Shown piece after piece: positions 8,639 through 27,946 of a stretch of DNA of 27,946 nucleotides. A program made the translations under genes and the position numbers. Position 1 is the stretch's first letter. Each line of letters begins with the position of its first letter. The notes beneath the pieces are model-generated. The model saw nothing but the letters and a program-made list of their open reading frames with translations. It was not told the origin of the DNA and made no database searches. The stretch is from a virus: UHGV virus genome UHGV-0178950, one strand, 5' to 3'.

Positions 8639-11600
8639 ATGCGATCAATCCAATTTAAACGCACACAAACGGCTGGTAAAAAACCAACGCCGGAACAATT
8701 ATCACAGGGTGAATTGGCTATTAACCTTGCTGATCACGTTCTGTATACCAAAGATAAAAATAACGCAGTAGTTCAAATCTCTGTTTCTCCAGAAAAACAT
8801 GCTGAACTTAACACGAAAGTAGACCAGAATAAAACCAACACTGACCGTGTTATTGCTTCCAACAAACAAGAGGCCGCTAATAATCTGGCTAGTGCTAAAG
8901 CTGAACTGAATCAGACTATTACCACGAAAGATACAGCGACCAATAAGCGCATTGATGCTACCAACACCACTGTTAGTAACTTAACCCAGACAGTTACGGC
9001 AAATAAAACCGATGCCGACACTAAGATCAATAACCTTACGGGGACCGTATCTGCGAATAAGACCGCAATTGAAAGAACCGTTGCCGCAAACAAATCTGAT
9101 GCAGATAGCAAACATGCAGCTTTAACGAAAACGGTCACTGACAATAACACCGCGATTAACAACAAGGTTAATACCACTAACACCAACGTTAGCAACTTAA
9201 CTAAAACTGTTACTGCAAATAAAACCGATGCAGATAACAAAATTTCTAGCTTAACTAGCACGGTTGCAGCTAACAAGACAGCGATCGAAAAGACTGTTTC
9301 CGACAATAAGAAAGACGCGGATACTAAGATTACCAATCTTACTGGCACTGTTAATAGCAACCATACCGCAATTAACAACAAGGTAGACCAGAATAAATCT
9401 TCTACTGATGCCGCAATTGCAGCCGCTAACAAACGAATTGATGGTATTGAAGGTAGCAATGATGCTCTTTACATCAAGAAGAATACCAATACTAAGCATG
9501 GTGGGTATCTGTTAAGCAAGACAGCTAACTATCTGGAAGACCAGACATCACGAGATCTTAACTACTTTGGTGCTTTCCGTACCAATGGTCAAGATGGACT
9601 CATGGATCTAACTCTTAATGTTCCTCATTCTGCCGGTAAAGCGCACGGTCGCGGATTTACTTTCCGTTATGCGTCTGGTGGATCTCGTGTTGAAACCTAT
9701 GGTTTTGATAGAGAAGGACAGAAGAACTTTAGCTATAAGATGTATCACGAAGGTGATAAGCCGACTCCTGGCGAGATTGGCGCATACACCAAAGCCGAAG
9801 TTGATAAGATGTTTGTTAAAAACGTCGTTATGTCTGTTCCCAATTCTAGCGAAAACGTATCTGCATATTTCAAATTGGCAACCGCAACAATTCCACAAAA
9901 CGGGCGTAGTGTGTTTTTCCGTATTCATGGTGGTAATGGTTACAACGTTACGGCATATGATCAGGTTGACGTAGTAGAAATTCTTCTGCGTAGTGGTAAC
10001 GATAGACCTAAAGGTCTTAACGTAATTGCATACCGTAGAAATACAAACAAAGATTTTGAGGTATTTGCTGTCAATACTTCCGGTGATAACTATGATATCT
10101 ACGTGAAATATCAGCGTTATACCGATAACGTTATTGTCGAATATGGGAAATCTGTTTATGTAAGTTTGACGGTTTATGATACGCCGGAAGCCACGTTAAT
10201 TAAACCTTCCGTTGGTGTTATCGGTGGTCGCAACGTAACTCTTTTTAATACTGAAAATAAACGTGGTGTGTTAAGTTTTGATGATAACACACAAAACAGC
10301 TATGACATTGTTCATCTAAGTAATGATAAAGGTACTGGACGGAAATATATTCGTAAATTCCGTAGCAACTATAACGAAATGGTTTGGCATGAAACCGTTC
10401 AGGGTGCTGTATATCGTCTTGCTACTGGTGCTACAGATTCTACAGAAGTTATTAGAATTGATTCTAATAGTGCAATACCGGGTAATTATAAAGGATATGT
10501 AATTACTGGTAAAATGGAATTGCACGGTAGTGGTAATGCGATGACTTTACATCGACAGACTGGTCAAGCTGCATATATGGCGTGGTGGGATCGTCGTGAT
10601 GGTAAAAACCAACGTAGTGGTTATATCGGTCATGCGGATGGTACTAGTGATGGTTTTGTGTGGCGTAATGATGTTGGTGCTAACTCATTTGATTTGGAAG
10701 GTAGTGGACAAGTAAATTTGACTACAGGAAAAACAAAAATTGTATATACCAATGGTCAATATTATTCCGCTAACGCTGATGCATTCCGTATGATTTACGG
10801 TAAGTATGGTGCATTCTGGCGAAATGATGGTGGTAAAGTTTATCTGTTGTCTACTGCCGAAAATGATAGATTTGGTGGTTGGAATACATATCGACCTTTT
10901 ATCTACGATCTTACTTCCGGTAACGTTCAATTAGGTGGTGATGGAAACGAAGATGTATTAACTCTAGAACGCGCAAGCAAGGCCGCTCGATTCTCTGGCA
11001 ACGCTTACATCAAAGGTCAACATTTAACATTTGATGCTGGTGCTGGACAATCCCGCGATTACTTCCGGTTTAACCATTGGGGCGATAGTAATAACGCTCG
11101 CGATAACATCCTACAGATTGAAGACAGTCAGGGTGCACACTTTACCACTGAACGCGCTATGGGTACTGGCAATATCACAGCACGTTTTAAAGGCTTTGTG
11201 CGTGTAGAATCCGGTGAGATTGCCTTTGATGCTAATCGTGGATCTGCGTCTCAATTTACCTTACATACATGGGGTAACGAGCAACGCAAACAGGTTTTTG
11301 AATGTAAGGATGCTACTAGTTATCATTGGTATACCGAACGTACAAACGGTGGAACTGGTCCTATCCTGTTCTCTGTTGCTGGTACATTAAAAACTGCGAG
11401 CAATATACAGGTTGGCGGTGCTGATATTGAGTTTCGTCGCAGTGGTAATAAGCATTTATGGTTTAGAGATCCGAACGGTTTAGAATTAGGTTTGATGTAC
11501 TGCGATGATGCTGGTGTTATCCGCTTCCGTGGTCAGAAACAAGGTCAAACTTGGAAACTTGCTGATAAAATGATTCATCTTGAGGCGGGGACTGTCGGCG

Positions 11601-12241
11601 GGTCTGATAAAGGTTTGATTCGTGGTAATGTTGCTGGTGGTAGCTGGGCTAGCTGGCGTGATCGTTCTGCCGGAATCCTCGTAGACTGTCCGAACTCAAC
11701 CGATTCCGCTCATAACATCTGGAAAGCGACTCATTGGGGAAAATATCATATTGCGGCAATGGGTGTGCATGTTCCTAGTGGTACTATTACCAATGCTTTA
11801 GCTCGCCTAAACGTTCACGACGCCAACTTTGACTTTAACGCTGCGGGTGATTTTAGCGCAGGTCGTAACGGTAGCTTTAACGATGTTTACATTCGCTCTG
11901 ACTCCCGTTTGAAGATTAACAAGGAAGAATTACAGGACGGTGCATTAGAGAAAGTAAACTCACTGAAAGTCTACACCTACGATAAAGTTAAATCTCTTTC
12001 CGATGACACGGTGATTAAACGCGAAGTAGGTATTATTGCTCAGGATCTGGAAAAAGTATTGCCGGAAGCAGTAGGTATTCAATCCACAGAAGATCCAGAA
12101 CAACCGGAAGCAATCAAGACTATTTCTAACTCTGCTGTTAATGCCTTGATTATTAAAGCTATGCAGGAAATGGACGCCAAATATAAAACACAGATCGAAG
12201 CATTACAGAAAGAAATTGCCGAACTGAAAGCAACTAAATAA
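8639..12241 (+). CDS. Long tail fibre with C-terminal intramolecular chaperone (peptidase S74-like) domain
   Basis: 1200 aa; N-terminal KKPTPEQLSQGELAIN box; Thr/Asn/Lys-rich tandem repeats; C-terminal SDSRLKINKEELQ...VYTYDK...GIIAQDLEKVLPEAV resembles the self-cleaving chaperone of L-shaped fibres and endosialidases. Confidence 0.8.
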   Translation: MRSIQFKRTQTAGKKPTPEQLSQGELAINLADHVLYTKDKNNAVVQISVSPEKHAELNTKVDQNKTNTDRVIASNKQEAANNLASAKAELNQTITTKDTATNKRIDATNTTVSNLTQTVTANKTDADTKINNLTGTVSANKTAIERTVAANKSDADSKHAALTKTVTDNNTAINNKVNTTNTNVSNLTKTVTANKTDADNKISSLTSTVAANKTAIEKTVSDNKKDADTKITNLTGTVNSNHTAINNKVDQNKSSTDAAIAAANKRIDGIEGSNDALYIKKNTNTKHGGYLLSKTANYLEDQTSRDLNYFGAFRTNGQDGLMDLTLNVPHSAGKAHGRGFTFRYASGGSRVETYGFDREGQKNFSYKMYHEGDKPTPGEIGAYTKAEVDKMFVKNVVMSVPNSSENVSAYFKLATATIPQNGRSVFFRIHGGNGYNVTAYDQVDVVEILLRSGNDRPKGLNVIAYRRNTNKDFEVFAVNTSGDNYDIYVKYQRYTDNVIVEYGKSVYVSLTVYDTPEATLIKPSVGVIGGRNVTLFNTENKRGVLSFDDNTQNSYDIVHLSNDKGTGRKYIRKFRSNYNEMVWHETVQGAVYRLATGATDSTEVIRIDSNSAIPGNYKGYVITGKMELHGSGNAMTLHRQTGQAAYMAWWDRRDGKNQRSGYIGHADGTSDGFVWRNDVGANSFDLEGSGQVNLTTGKTKIVYTNGQYYSANADAFRMIYGKYGAFWRNDGGKVYLLSTAENDRFGGWNTYRPFIYDLTSGNVQLGGDGNEDVLTLERASKAARFSGNAYIKGQHLTFDAGAGQSRDYFRFNHWGDSNNARDNILQIEDSQGAHFTTERAMGTGNITARFKGFVRVESGEIAFDANRGSASQFTLHTWGNEQRKQVFECKDATSYHWYTERTNGGTGPILFSVAGTLKTASNIQVGGADIEFRRSGNKHLWFRDPNGLELGLMYCDDAGVIRFRGQKQGQTWKLADKMIHLEAGTVGGSDKGLIRGNVAGGSWASWRDRSAGILVDCPNSTDSAHNIWKATHWGKYHIAAMGVHVPSGTITNALARLNVHDANFDFNAAGDFSAGRNGSFNDVYIRSDSRLKINKEELQDGALEKVNSLKVYTYDKVKSLSDDTVIKREVGIIAQDLEKVLPEAVGIQSTEDPEQPEAIKTISNSAVNALIIKAMQEMDAKYKTQIEALQKEIAELKATK
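8978..9409 (+). repeat. Two tandem copies of a 216-nt (72-aa) coding repeat inside the fibre gene
   Basis: NLTQTVTANKTDADTKINNLTGTVSANKTAIERTV... repeated as NLTKTVTANKTDADNKISSLTSTVAANKTAIEKTV..., period 216 nt (8978 to 9194). Confidence 0.7.
11896..12241 (+). other. Predicted autoproteolytic chaperone domain of the fibre; cleavage predicted at the Ser-Asp of SDSRLK
   Basis: SDxRLK-type motif at 11896-11913 followed by about 110 residues with a coiled-coil tail. Confidence 0.55.
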
Positions 12242-23786: not shown

Positions 23787-24140
23787 ATGTTAAGCAAACA
23801 TTTTTCTCGCAAGGAATTTAAATGTAAATGCGGAAAATGTGATTATGATACAATCGACGCTGAATTACTGGTAATTCTTGAGGATGTACGAGAGCACTTC
23901 GGTAAACCAGTGATTATTAACAGTGGCAACCGTTGCCCGACTCATAACAAGAATGTAGGCGGGGCAGCCAATAGCTATCACGTTCGAGGCCGTGCGGCTG
24001 ACATTGTTATCAAGGGTGTCTCACCTGATATTGTTCATGCTTATCTTGATGGGAAATATCCTACTCAATACGGCTTAGGAAAATATAAAACATTTACGCA
24101 TATCGATTCCAGATCAAAAAAATCACGGTGGAATGGATAA
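23787..24140 (+). CDS. Endolysin, zinc peptidase M15 family (YcbK-like / Peptidase_M15_3 type)
   Basis: 117 aa; KCKCGKCDYD Cys box, RCPTHNKNVGG, SYHVRGRAADI and FTHID motifs match the zinc-ligand pattern of M15 cell-wall peptidases; AAGGGGGT Shine-Dalgarno. Confidence 0.8.
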   Translation: MLSKHFSRKEFKCKCGKCDYDTIDAELLVILEDVREHFGKPVIINSGNRCPTHNKNVGGAANSYHVRGRAADIVIKGVSPDIVHAYLDGKYPTQYGLGKYKTFTHIDSRSKKSRWNG

Positions 24141-24411: not shown

Positions 24412-24684
24412 CTATGATTTATTTTCTTGTTCTATGAAAATCTTTCTCACCTCATCAGAATAAATGTCTAGTGATTCCTCATAACATTTTCTGTATTCAT
24501 CGTAATTACTGGTGGTCTTTTGACATAGCAATTTCAATGTCTTATGTGCTCCATCAATGAAAGCATCTTCTCTATAGGTTAGCGGTCTACGCATTTCTTG
24601 GTCTACGGTTGCCAATGCCAAGCAAGAATTCATAGATAAAATCAAACCTAAAATCTTAATCATCTTCATTAGCTTAAATTCCAA
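24412..24684 (-). CDS. Small secreted or lipoprotein-like protein, about 85-90 aa
   Basis: N-terminal signal peptide MKMIKILGLILSMNSCLALA with a possible AxA cleavage or atypical lipobox; two Cys in the mature part; overlaps the recombinase 3' end by 11 nt. Confidence 0.55.
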   Translation of the reverse strand: MEFKLMKMIKILGLILSMNSCLALATVDQEMRRPLTYREDAFIDGAHKTLKLLCQKTTSNYDEYRKCYEESLDIYSDEVRKIFIEQENKS

Positions 24685-26359: not shown

Positions 26360-26402
26360 TCCAAACAAAAACGCCCCTACCGCGTATTATAACGATAGGG
26401 GC
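26360..26402 (-). terminator. Hairpin plus T-rich run on the minus strand between the secreted-protein gene and the recombinase; loop contains TATAAT
   Basis: GCCCCTA...TAGGGGC stem; minus-strand downstream GTTTTTGTTTGG. Confidence 0.4.
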
Positions 26403-26416
26403 TAGGTGATTAAAGA

Positions 26417-26836
26417 TTAAAGAATTTCACGGCAGCTAATCAGGGAATAAGACGTATCACCTTTTTTAACATCAAATATAGGCGCGCCATCTACAGAATG
26501 CAGATATTTGATGTAGGATTTACCATCTTCGGAACCATAATATTCTTCTTTCTCGTTCTTATCTTCTTTCAGTTTTGGACTTTTGATTGTTTTATCAAAT
26601 ACCGGATCGTTGAAAGCAAATTGACTATTATCATCATTCACTCGAACCTTTACACCGATAAAACTACGGTATTTGCCAGACGGCGCATGATAATAACGGT
26701 CGCCATCACTCAGGTAGCGTGTATCATCTCCTTTATATTCGAAGTAGGAATTGCACACATAATAGGTATAGGTATTAGCATTCGCAGCACCAACCAAACC
26801 CAGAGCAAGAACAACACCAGCGATAATCTTTTTCAT
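26417..26836 (-). CDS. Secreted Tyr/Asp/Lys-rich protein of unknown function, 139 aa
   Basis: Signal peptide MKKIIAGVVLALGLVGAANA with AxA cleavage site; two Cys in the mature protein. Confidence 0.6.
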   Translation of the reverse strand: MKKIIAGVVLALGLVGAANANTYTYYVCNSYFEYKGDDTRYLSDGDRYYHAPSGKYRSFIGVKVRVNDDNSQFAFNDPVFDKTIKSPKLKEDKNEKEEYYGSEDGKSYIKYLHSVDGAPIFDVKKGDTSYSLISCREIL

Positions 26837-26881
26837 AGTAGAATTTCCTCTTGTTGTTTGAATTACGATATATTTATATCA

Positions 26882-27004
26882 TTAAAAGTTAATGCTAATA
26901 ATCAGACCAAACACAACCGCACCAATCAAATCAATCCAGTTAATACACAGCGAATATTCTTTCTTGAATGTCTTAGATGAAATGCCATCATGAAATTGTT
27001 TCAT
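26882..27004 (-). CDS. Candidate 40-aa membrane micro-protein (not in ORF track)
   Basis: ATG preceded by GGGGTGAG; encodes MKQFHDGISSKTFKKEYSLCINWIDLIGAVVFGLIISINF with a C-terminal hydrophobic helix. Confidence 0.3.
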   Translation of the reverse strand: MKQFHDGISSKTFKKEYSLCINWIDLIGAVVFGLIISINF

Positions 27005-27007
27005 TGC

Positions 27008-27088
27008 TCACCCCATACTAACGACAATATAAGAAAGACTAATCATGGTTGTGAGACTACCTCCCACGAATGAGATAAAAGCTAACAT
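27008..27088 (-). CDS. Candidate 26-aa hydrophobic micro-peptide (not in ORF track)
   Basis: ATG with GGAG 8 nt upstream; encodes MLAFISFVGGSLTTMISLSYIVVSMG; its TGA stop abuts the start of the 40-aa ORF. Confidence 0.2.
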   Translation of the reverse strand: MLAFISFVGGSLTTMISLSYIVVSMG

Positions 27089-27144
27089 GTTTGATTCTCC
27101 ATTTAAAAAGCGGTGGGAATTACACCCACCAAATTAGAAATTAA

Positions 27145-27582
27145 TTAAGCGCGAACGATGGTCAGAGTATCCAGCAAACCTTTTTCGTATAATTCGAAAC
27201 ACGTTTTATATTGCTCAATCTTCCAACCGTAGCGGGTGATCTTATTCAGTAGAATAATCACGGTATTCTCATCTAGGTATTGTCCTTGCTTACCAATTAC
27301 ATATGACTCGCGGGATAGTCTCAGCTTACGGAAACCTTTAACACCTAATTCCTTAGCCACCGCTTTAACCTCGTTAATCTCACCTTCTGCGGCTACATAT
27401 TCAGCGTCGATAATCTCAGTTGATGATCTCAGTGCTACCAGAACTAAGGCCATTGCTTCTTCTTCGGTACGAGCAACACCAGCTTTCTCGAAAGTCATCT
27501 CACCAAATTTACGAGTCATAATATTGAACATTGTCTGTATTCCGTTTAAATCGGCGGGAATAGTACCCGCCAAATTAGACAT
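27145..27582 (-). CDS. Hypothetical protein, 145 aa
   Basis: ORF whose start overlaps the stop of the upstream 90-aa gene (operon arrangement). Confidence 0.55.
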   Translation of the reverse strand: MSNLAGTIPADLNGIQTMFNIMTRKFGEMTFEKAGVARTEEEAMALVLVALRSSTEIIDAEYVAAEGEINEVKAVAKELGVKGFRKLRLSRESYVIGKQGQYLDENTVIILLNKITRYGWKIEQYKTCFELYEKGLLDTLTIVRA

Positions 27583-27854
27583 TACTTCTTGCTGATAAAC
27601 TCTTTAGCGATAAAGTTGATTACTTCTTTCAGCTTCTTGTCTGTATCGATGCACGCTGGTAATTCTTCTTTAATATCCTGCGGCAGATACACATTGCCTT
27701 TAAAGTGGAGGAAACCATCATTACCAATCATGTAGGAGAACATCCATTCACAATCGTTATCCGCTTCCCAGAACGCCACGGTCTCATCCCCAATCAAGGT
27801 AATGTCCATGTTGCGACGCGCTGCGTAGTTGATGATTGCTTTACCGATGTTCAT
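27582..27854 (-). CDS. Hypothetical protein, 90 aa, first visible gene of the minus-strand accessory operon
   Basis: ORF with GAGGGGGT Shine-Dalgarno on the minus strand; an inverted repeat (GTACCC...GGGTAC, about 27861-27885) sits just upstream. Confidence 0.55.
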   Translation of the reverse strand: MNIGKAIINYAARRNMDITLIGDETVAFWEADNDCEWMFSYMIGNDGFLHFKGNVYLPQDIKEELPACIDTDKKLKEVINFIAKEFISKK

Positions 27855-27946
27855 TGTTGTACCCCCTCGTGTTATTGTGGGTACATGATATTTGGCAAAC
27901 CTAAACAGGAGATTACTCGCCTATTTAACTTGCACCATGCGACAAA

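Follow-up and report, generated by a model that had tools for sequence, protein, structure and literature searches.

Conjugative elements and insertion sequences are known to express genes in a state-dependent manner. In the circles of IS911, IS2 and IS30, a -35 element in one end and a -10 element in the other make a strong promoter only once the ends have joined. Phage moron and lysogenic-conversion cassettes such as the HK97 and lambda morons and P22 gtr are located between the integrase gene and the attachment (att) site, with morons being defined by a promoter of their own and by expression from the repressed prophage. In the integrative and conjugative elements (ICEs) ICEclc, with the promoter Pcirc (PMC5812530), and ICEKp1, with a 3'-end promoter (PMC13023037), a promoter at one end is brought next to genes at the other by excision, which makes expression dependent on the integrated or circular state. 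Here, we analyse positions 26,417 to 27,946 of the virus genome UHGV-0178950, the entire 27,946 nucleotides (nt) of which are called the window. This stretch is the accessory operon next to the phage attachment site (attP) of a siphovirus-like Escherichia coli prophage of ~36 kb, which encodes a large serine recombinase and is integrated in hicB.

As the only recognisable promoter of this operon is cut by integration, the operon is read as one of the circular state and not as a classic moron expressed in the lysogen. We assign a probability of about 0.5 to the reading that this is a circular-state accessory operon with a promoter split by integration, which combines optional cytoplasmic cargo with an invariant envelope set. 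The analysis shows the anatomy, conservation, att site, promoter sequence logic and protein fold of the cassette; that the promoter is active, when the genes are expressed and what each protein does are inferred. If the promoter works as predicted, it would be a simple built-in switch by which a temperate phage could distinguish the integrated from the free state and time its cargo genes; with an inactive promoter, the locus would be an ordinary accessory cassette.

The prophage and its attachment site

A reference locus nearly identical to the window is a prophage of E. coli strain 2014EL-1346-6 (99.8% identical), where an element of ~36 kb lies between the two halves of the antitoxin gene hicB. 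At full length, the window is 96-99.8% identical to 20 complete E. coli chromosomes and at least 80% of it is held by 23, while sequence comparison with 50,697 isolated phages identified no close relative. Equally, the elements are present in IMG/VR only as ~35-kb prophages excised in silico, none of the isolated phages in INPHARED carries the cassette or its proteins of 139 and 40 amino acids (aa), and literature searches found no account of the prophage family or its insertion sites. Elsewhere in the window, a structural arm of siphovirus-like type encodes large terminase, portal, head protein, tape measure, J-like tail tip and an endolysin, the last of these at 23787-24140 in a separate lysis region.

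The five minus-strand open reading frames (ORFs) of the initial annotation, of 90, 145, 26, 40 and 139 aa, were recovered at the positions that it had given (Table 1). Their operon had been described as running into the window edge, with the promoter and further upstream genes to be sought beyond position 27946. Comparison of both junctions of the 99.8% identical prophage with the intact hicB of strain K-12 corrected this view, as the shared core TTGGCAA places the prophage end at 27892-27898 and 27892-27946 is host DNA, namely the 3' part of hicB. The first start codon of the cassette (27854) is 37 nt from the crossover core, and extension past the window end leads to the remaining hicB and then to ydcR, both reading away from the cassette, and not to phage genes.

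The insertion point is taken to be in the C-terminal DNA-binding domain of HicB. Translation of the junction leaves hicA intact and gives a HicB of 103 residues followed by 9 phage-encoded residues; related elements likewise split codB, ycdX and ydiJ. Excision would restore hicB, and the phage could then switch a host toxin-antitoxin locus.

The integrase shows the domains Resolvase (PF00239, 54 bits), Recombinase (PF07508, 32 bits) and Zn_ribbon_recom (PF13408, 37.5 bits), all above cut-offs, and belongs to phrog_95 'integrase' (E 5e-58). The site itself has the features of serine recombinases, with a 7-bp core lacking a long target duplication, an attP 1.5 kb from the integrase gene and the intragenic targets hicB, codB, ycdX and ydiJ.

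A predicted promoter split between the two prophage ends

To obtain attP, the two prophage ends were joined in silico and the product was scored against the sigma-70 consensus (out of 12). In cassette sense, the reconstructed site reads GGGGCTTTTTATTGCAAAATTTTTAGTTATTTTGGG-TTGACT-ACATTCGGGTTGCCAAA-TATCAT-GTACCC. In this attP (hicB type 1), the 17-nt spacer between the hexamers contains the crossover core and the -10 hexamer lies 1 nt from the core. The predicted promoter scores 10/12 in hicB type 1 (TTGACT-17-TATCAT), codB (TTGACC-16-TATCAT) and ycdX (TTGACT-18-TATCAT), in each of which it is the sole match on the cassette strand, and 11/12 in hicB type 2 (TTTACA-18-TATAAT), an attP put together by eye. 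None of the scanned prophage junctions (attL and attR) and bacterial sites (attB) has a promoter match on this strand. When the 143-nt attP was shuffled, just 2.9% of the resulting sequences reached 10/12 or more anywhere.

In the four reconstructed attP variants, the two elements are located on opposite prophage ends and are joined by circularisation. Both hexamers vary among them but remain close to the consensus. At six junctions, the -10 retains the pattern T-A-T-x-A-T, with TATCAT at the ydiJ junction and TATTAT at the Salmonella junction, for both of which only this prophage end was available. Upstream of the -35, a terminator-like hairpin and an AT-rich tract are conserved; the left-end cargo gene beyond the hairpin varies between several LprI-family variants and an unrelated 101-aa ORF, with hairpin and -35 being conserved. 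By reading of the attP arms, TTGAC lies in a 4-5-nt asymmetry between them, which argues that it is more than part of a symmetric integrase site. Literature searches found no report of such split promoter logic for a serine-integrase phage.

At the other end of the prophage (locus L002 11208-11987), the gene that ends just short of the -35 half is of the LprI family (DUF1311, lysozyme-inhibitor-like). A scan of species genomes with the left-end motif gave five matches in unrelated organisms (Pseudomonas, Alteromonas and others), which were taken as chance and discarded.

In the prophage state, the promoter scan revealed no site at threshold upstream of the first gene on the cassette strand, where a weak match of 9/12, located within the 26-aa ORF, is the sole promoter-like site at threshold. 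We propose that the -35 at the far end and the -10 at this end would join only in the circular genome, after infection or excision, and that integration would cut the promoter in two and leave the operon off or low in the prophage.

The locus had initially been seen as a moron or superinfection-exclusion cassette. Its accessory and modular nature and its att-to-integrase position are borne out by the present analysis; expression in the lysogen is weakened by the finding that the only good promoter is broken by integration. A classic lysogenic-conversion or moron cassette would express at least the micro-proteins and the exported protein from the resting prophage via internal promoters; the lysogen would be protected, for instance through envelope-based superinfection exclusion or through inhibition of the cell-wall hydrolases of incoming phages or of the host. 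Such an explanation, possible though doubtful, gains from the position typical of conversion genes, from the perfect or near-perfect -10 still present at attR and from the bracketing of the exported gene by a conserved spacer and a strong terminator. It has to account for the lack of a cassette-strand site at threshold upstream of any gene in the prophage state, for the weak hexamer matches that the spacer yields by eye and for the Salmonella set, which is one coupled operon starting at att.

Several points weigh against an operon of the circular state. The hexamers lie within the integrase attP arms, so that their conservation could partly reflect recombinase binding, and the promoter itself is a consensus match alone. 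No natural circular junction was found in the viral and metagenome contigs searched, attP being reconstructed and not observed. The terminator after the 128-aa gene, seen in the E. coli version only, would limit read-through into the micro-ORFs and should, in the proposed mechanism, attenuate the distal genes. Furthermore, expression in the lysogen could come from internal promoters in the highly conserved spacer ahead of the exported gene and at a TATAAT ahead of the integrase gene. Genes between integrase gene and att are classically lysogenic-conversion genes, as in P22, P2 and Shigella phages. Equally, family scans, profile searches and fold searches gave no significant match of a cassette protein to any family of known function.

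Table 1. Features of the cassette and of the adjacent integrase gene, in window coordinates
Feature	Position	Strand	Basis and remarks
Crossover core of attR, prophage end	27892..27898		TTGGCAA on the plus strand, TTGCCAA in cassette sense; junctions compared with K-12 hicB
-10 hexamer TATCAT of the predicted attP-spanning promoter	27885..27890	-	-35 partner TTGACT at the other prophage end, outside the window
Inverted repeat TGTACCC-N14-GGGTACA	27858..27885	-	between -10 and start codon; -9.2 kcal/mol, z -2.4
90-aa cytoplasmic protein, optional cargo	27582..27854	-	phrog_6147, PHROG E 8e-33
Module-boundary hairpin (GGCGGGTACTATTCCCGCC)	27551..27573	-	repeat of the 27111-27131 terminator hairpin, inside the first 17 codons of the 145-aa frame
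145-aa ORF with conserved 128-aa core	27145..27582	-	core from Met18 (27531); relatives start at MFNIM
Intrinsic terminator after the 128-aa gene	27111..27131	-	terminator scan; -12 kcal/mol, z -3.2, followed by a U-run
26-aa micro-protein, invariant core	27008..27088	-	own Shine-Dalgarno sequence; 30/30 cassettes
40-aa micro-protein, invariant core	26882..27004	-	30/30 cassettes; start 3 nt past the 26-aa stop codon
Conserved non-coding spacer with palindrome GATATAAATATATC (26867-26880)	26837..26881	-	upstream of the exported gene
139-aa exported Tyr-rich protein, one of two alternative alleles	26417..26836	-	signal peptide at residues 1-20, then a predicted small all-beta barrel
Strong intrinsic terminator after the exported gene	26373..26402	-	-20.5 kcal/mol, z -4.2
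Large serine recombinase (integrase), 559 aa	24674..26353	-	Pfam and PHROG; constant cassette partner, directly downstream

A modular cassette that travels with the integrase gene

The stretch is an accessory cassette built of modules, and it occupies the classic place for these in a prophage, between att and the integrase gene. It sits between attP and the integrase gene, is always co-oriented with the latter, and recurs together with related integrases in codB, ycdX and ydiJ as well as in ycdX of Salmonella, where the backbone beyond the integrase gene is a different one. In a tblastn survey of 30 related cassettes, which underlies all gene counts given here, the integrase gene and the 26-aa and 40-aa ORFs were each found in all 30, the 128-aa gene in 26 and the 90-aa gene in ~20, while the exported gene is of the 139-aa type in 16 and of an unrelated 81-aa type in 14. 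Presence or absence at the same position among relatives, a trait of morons, is seen in the optional 90-aa and 128-aa genes, in the two exported alleles and in extra inserts.

Start and stop codons of the cassette genes are coupled or overlap. In the Salmonella cassette (locus L012 3729-5405), translational coupling links all seven genes, from att up to the terminator ahead of the integrase gene; the single operon assumed at the outset is tightly coupled throughout in this version and is interrupted in E. coli by the terminator after the 128-aa gene. An additional 105-aa lipoprotein (phrog_13472) is carried by the Salmonella cassette. An apparent fusion to a host gene at another att site (P0048) was discarded as a chimeric metagenome scaffold with an N gap.

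Co-orientation with the integrase gene, the location between it and attP and the joint travel across different phage backbones would equally suit an accessory of the integration module, in which the attP promoter is mainly the integrase promoter and the cassette products aid or regulate recombination as a directionality or integrase-control factor; shut-off on integration would fit the integrase control of ICEs. We consider this explanation most improbable. A factor of this kind is expected wherever its cognate integrase occurs, whereas the 128-aa gene is missing in 4 of the 30 cassettes and the 90-aa gene in about 10; their homologues exist in virulent phages, where no need for integration factors is expected; and what is invariant, membrane peptides and an exported protein, is unlikely to partner a DNA recombinase. 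Furthermore, a directionality factor made from circular DNA alone would block integration and be absent at excision, and a strong terminator stands between cassette and integrase gene.

Scans of all five proteins against Pfam, NCBIfam and PADLOC gave nothing significant, nor did profile searches of the three larger proteins against the PDB. In line with the initial annotation, no cassette protein matched a replication or structural family in Pfam, PHROG or NCBIfam, and there was no significant PADLOC match to a known anti-phage defence system. That none of the genes shows a recognisable motif holds for Pfam, NCBIfam and PADLOC, but not for PHROG, where two of the proteins fall into families without known function that are widespread in virulent phages. 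Remote-homology and structure prediction, recommended at the outset, provided models of a beta-barrel for the 139-aa and of a ferredoxin-like fold for the 128-aa protein; a function could not be assigned to any of the proteins, so that the possible functions listed at first are narrowed down without one being singled out.

Optional cytoplasmic cargo shared with virulent phages

Relatives of the 90-aa protein were found by tblastn in 423 phage records, nearly all of virulent phages, with rV5-like, T1-like, Dhillonvirus and RB49-like phages and one jumbo Klebsiella phage on record. The family alignment has the invariant motif WE..D.EWM.SY...GN.YL...KEELP, and comparison with Salmonella gives a ratio of nonsynonymous to synonymous substitution rates (dN/dS) of 0.17. 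Neither a PDB relative, by profile search, nor a Pfam relative was found.

In elements without the 90-aa gene, the next protein begins with MFNIM, which corresponds to Met18 of the 145-aa ORF. As the 17 extra codons are not present in relatives and overlap the boundary hairpin, the conserved protein is 128 aa in length, which revises the boundary given at first. The hairpin folds at -16.8 kcal/mol and is missing where the 90-aa gene is missing; its motif TCTAATTTGGYGGGT occurs twice in the window against an expectation of 0.12.

The 128-aa protein consists of two modules, an N-domain of ~50 aa and a C-domain of ~75 aa (phrog_14908), which in Salmonella are separate genes, with the 62-aa N-domain gene located between the two micro-ORFs and the C-domain gene encoding 81 aa. 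The C-domain has matches in 57 phage records, and its predicted structure (pLDDT ~87) is a generic ferredoxin-like fold. A deep search with the entire protein retrieved just 19 clusters in 1.84 billion proteins, with fused partners that lack a Pfam domain.

The virulent phage RB49 has true homologues of both cargo proteins, RB49p194 (phrog_6147; ~45% identity to the 90-aa protein) and RB49p190 (phrog_14908; 46% identity to the C-domain), which lie within 1.2 kb of each other among small genes near alt and a DNA methyltransferase gene. They likewise have no known function, and the prophage version differs in that the C-domain is fused to an extra N-domain. In the proposed mechanism, the optional 90-aa and two-domain 128-aa proteins would form a first, cytoplasmic cargo group with roles in host takeover or anti-defence, which are suggested because the relatives sit in apparent early accessory-gene regions of virulent coliphages. 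With two uncharacterised families common in virulent coliphages being tied to a context that suggests early action, both are reasonable candidates for an anti-defence screen.

A proposed invariant envelope set

The product of the 26-aa ORF is, by its sequence, a lone hydrophobic helix with zero charged residues, while the 40-aa product combines a basic N-terminus (MKQFHDGISSKTFKK) with a C-terminal hydrophobic anchor. Changes among the E. coli copies are mostly synonymous, with an in-frame 3-nt indel in the 40-aa ORF, and in Salmonella the lengths are unchanged, with 11 of 26 and 25 of 40 residues identical and dN/dS values of 0.39 and 0.26, respectively, at a dS above 1. The 40-aa protein has 24 invariant columns across four versions and its gene has already been called in one Salmonella assembly. 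In the NCBI annotation of the 99.8% identical E. coli locus, the three larger ORFs are 'hypothetical protein' and the micro-ORFs are uncalled. Judged by these substitution patterns, the two micro-ORFs are real genes under purifying selection, as had been assumed from the sequence of the window. These two unannotated micro-proteins are the most conserved part of an integration module that has spread over several E. coli and Salmonella sites.

Small size, very high hydrophobicity, invariance and tight coupling are equally what small hydrophobic toxins would show, and one or both peptides might act on the membrane as toxins, be they type I-like, holin-like or abortive-infection effectors, and be neutralised by another cassette product or an antisense RNA. 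In E. coli, a plus-strand promoter-like site (26873-26902) indeed faces the 3' end of the 40-aa ORF, but it loses its -10 in Salmonella, which does not fit a conserved antisense RNA gene. In addition, PADLOC and Pfam gave no match, the Rfam scan returned nothing real, with no repeats or RNA family, and the phage already has its separate lysis region with an endolysin. A toxin-based module is very unlikely on these grounds, and the toxin-immunity reading offered at first has gained no specific support.

The description of the 139-aa protein as secreted and Tyr-rich agrees with a Sec-type signal peptide (MKK, a hydrophobic core and ANA followed by N at the cleavage site) and with 14 Tyr among its 139 residues; dN/dS of its gene against Salmonella is 0.39. 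In the predicted model, pLDDT is below 50 for residues 1-19 and ~95 for the remainder, by which the protein is confidently modelled as a periplasmic beta-barrel; Cys28 and Cys135 on the terminal strands are predicted to be capable of forming a disulfide. The alternative 81-aa exported protein (for example, loci L031 700-945 and L040 578-823) is unrelated, has two Cys and shares the same 20-residue signal peptide. This common signal peptide looks like a recombination joint.

MliC and PliC are eight-stranded beta-barrels that insert their conserved SxSGxxY and YxxxTKG loops into lysozyme. Fold searches with the 139-aa model gave generic barrels, among which many others resemble it besides the periplasmic inhibitors of lysozymes and peptidoglycan hydrolases MliC, PliC and PhiA; the unrelated barrels Cap15 and OmpW match equally well, and identity is 11-16%. 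A lysogen-protecting cassette would draw on this resemblance, on the LprI-family lysozyme-inhibitor-like gene at the other prophage end and on the exported gene evolving fast and being swapped for another exported allele. On the other hand, the 139-aa protein has no Pfam match to MliC/PliC, and its loops SGKY and KKGD, which would stand for the signature motifs, are not conserved in its own family. The sole PADLOC match of the protein is a weak one to PDC-M63A (E 0.031).

The profile of the 139-aa protein weakly matches ExbD periplasmic domains: residues 62-84 (26586-26654) share 12 of 23 positions with the first beta-hairpin of E. coli ExbD, including residues invariant in the 139-aa family. 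A fold relationship with ExbD/TolR was rejected, since the model is all-beta and the periplasmic domain of ExbD is alpha/beta, with database-wide E values of 0.36-0.58. The resemblance is kept, speculatively, as local mimicry alone; interference of this hairpin with the Ton system would be more speculative still.

In the proposed circular-state operon, the two single-helix micro-proteins and the exchangeable exported protein, here a disulfide-capable periplasmic beta-barrel, would form a second, invariant envelope set that might act in the episomal phase, for example by blocking the entry of competing phages, a receptor or a cell-wall hydrolase. Envelope-acting and anti-defence roles are the most reasonable guesses. 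A bolder formulation, rather unlikely in our estimation, is that the split promoter senses the state of the phage genome and confines to the free circle a new envelope module for entry control or exclusion, together with an anti-defence cargo shared with virulent phages.

Further signals inside the cassette

The loop of the terminator after the exported gene holds a consensus TATAAT (26386-26391), ~30 nt before the integrase start, which is kept in a differently sized loop in Salmonella. It may be the -10 of a possible integrase promoter, in which case the element would be terminator and -10 at once. The spacer before the exported gene is identical at 42 of 47 bases between E. coli and Salmonella, compared with 51-69% in the flanking coding DNA, holds only weak hexamer matches by eye and may serve as operator, promoter or translational element. 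The inverted repeat downstream of the -10, the 3' arm of which overlaps the Shine-Dalgarno sequence GAGGGGG (27862-27868), is replaced in the codB-type element by a different repeat, ATTCC...GGAAT; it may be an operator, an attP arm or a leader hairpin.

Neighbouring genes and the remainder of the prophage

Directly downstream of the integrase gene, a minus-strand ORF (24412-24684) that is unannotated in the near-identical RefSeq locus looks, from an internal Met (MKMIKILGLILSMNSCLALA, then cleavage before T), like another small exported protein. Between the head genes and the tape-measure gene, an odd place for a fibre gene, a 1200-aa protein is encoded (8639-12241, plus strand) that strongly matches long tail fibres. 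The copy in 2014EL-1346-6 has an IS1 inserted between tail and lysis genes (locus L001 2168-2865) and may be defective. The left arm of ~8 kb outside the window (locus L002 4067-12000) encodes a Rha/Ant-like regulator and a small-terminase-like gene; PHROG identified no recognisable repressor or replication genes in it, which raises the question of how replication and lysogeny of the 36-kb element are maintained.

Comparison with known systems

In ICEclc and ICEKp1, a complete promoter that points outward from one end controls the integrase gene of an element with a tyrosine recombinase; here, the crossover of a serine-integrase phage falls between the predicted hexamers, and cargo genes would be the first to be transcribed. 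In its arrangement, the site resembles the junction promoters of insertion sequence circles, which, however, belong to transposon circles and drive the transposase; here, a phage attP would carry a promoter that is destroyed by site-specific integration. Like morons and conversion cassettes, the locus lies beside the integrase gene at the end of the prophage and is made up of small accessory genes that vary in their occurrence and are flanked by hairpins or terminators. As for a promoter of its own, which defines a moron, none at threshold was found upstream of any gene on the cassette strand, with the conserved spacer (26837-26881) being a candidate, and the predicted promoter that can be detected is broken by integration.

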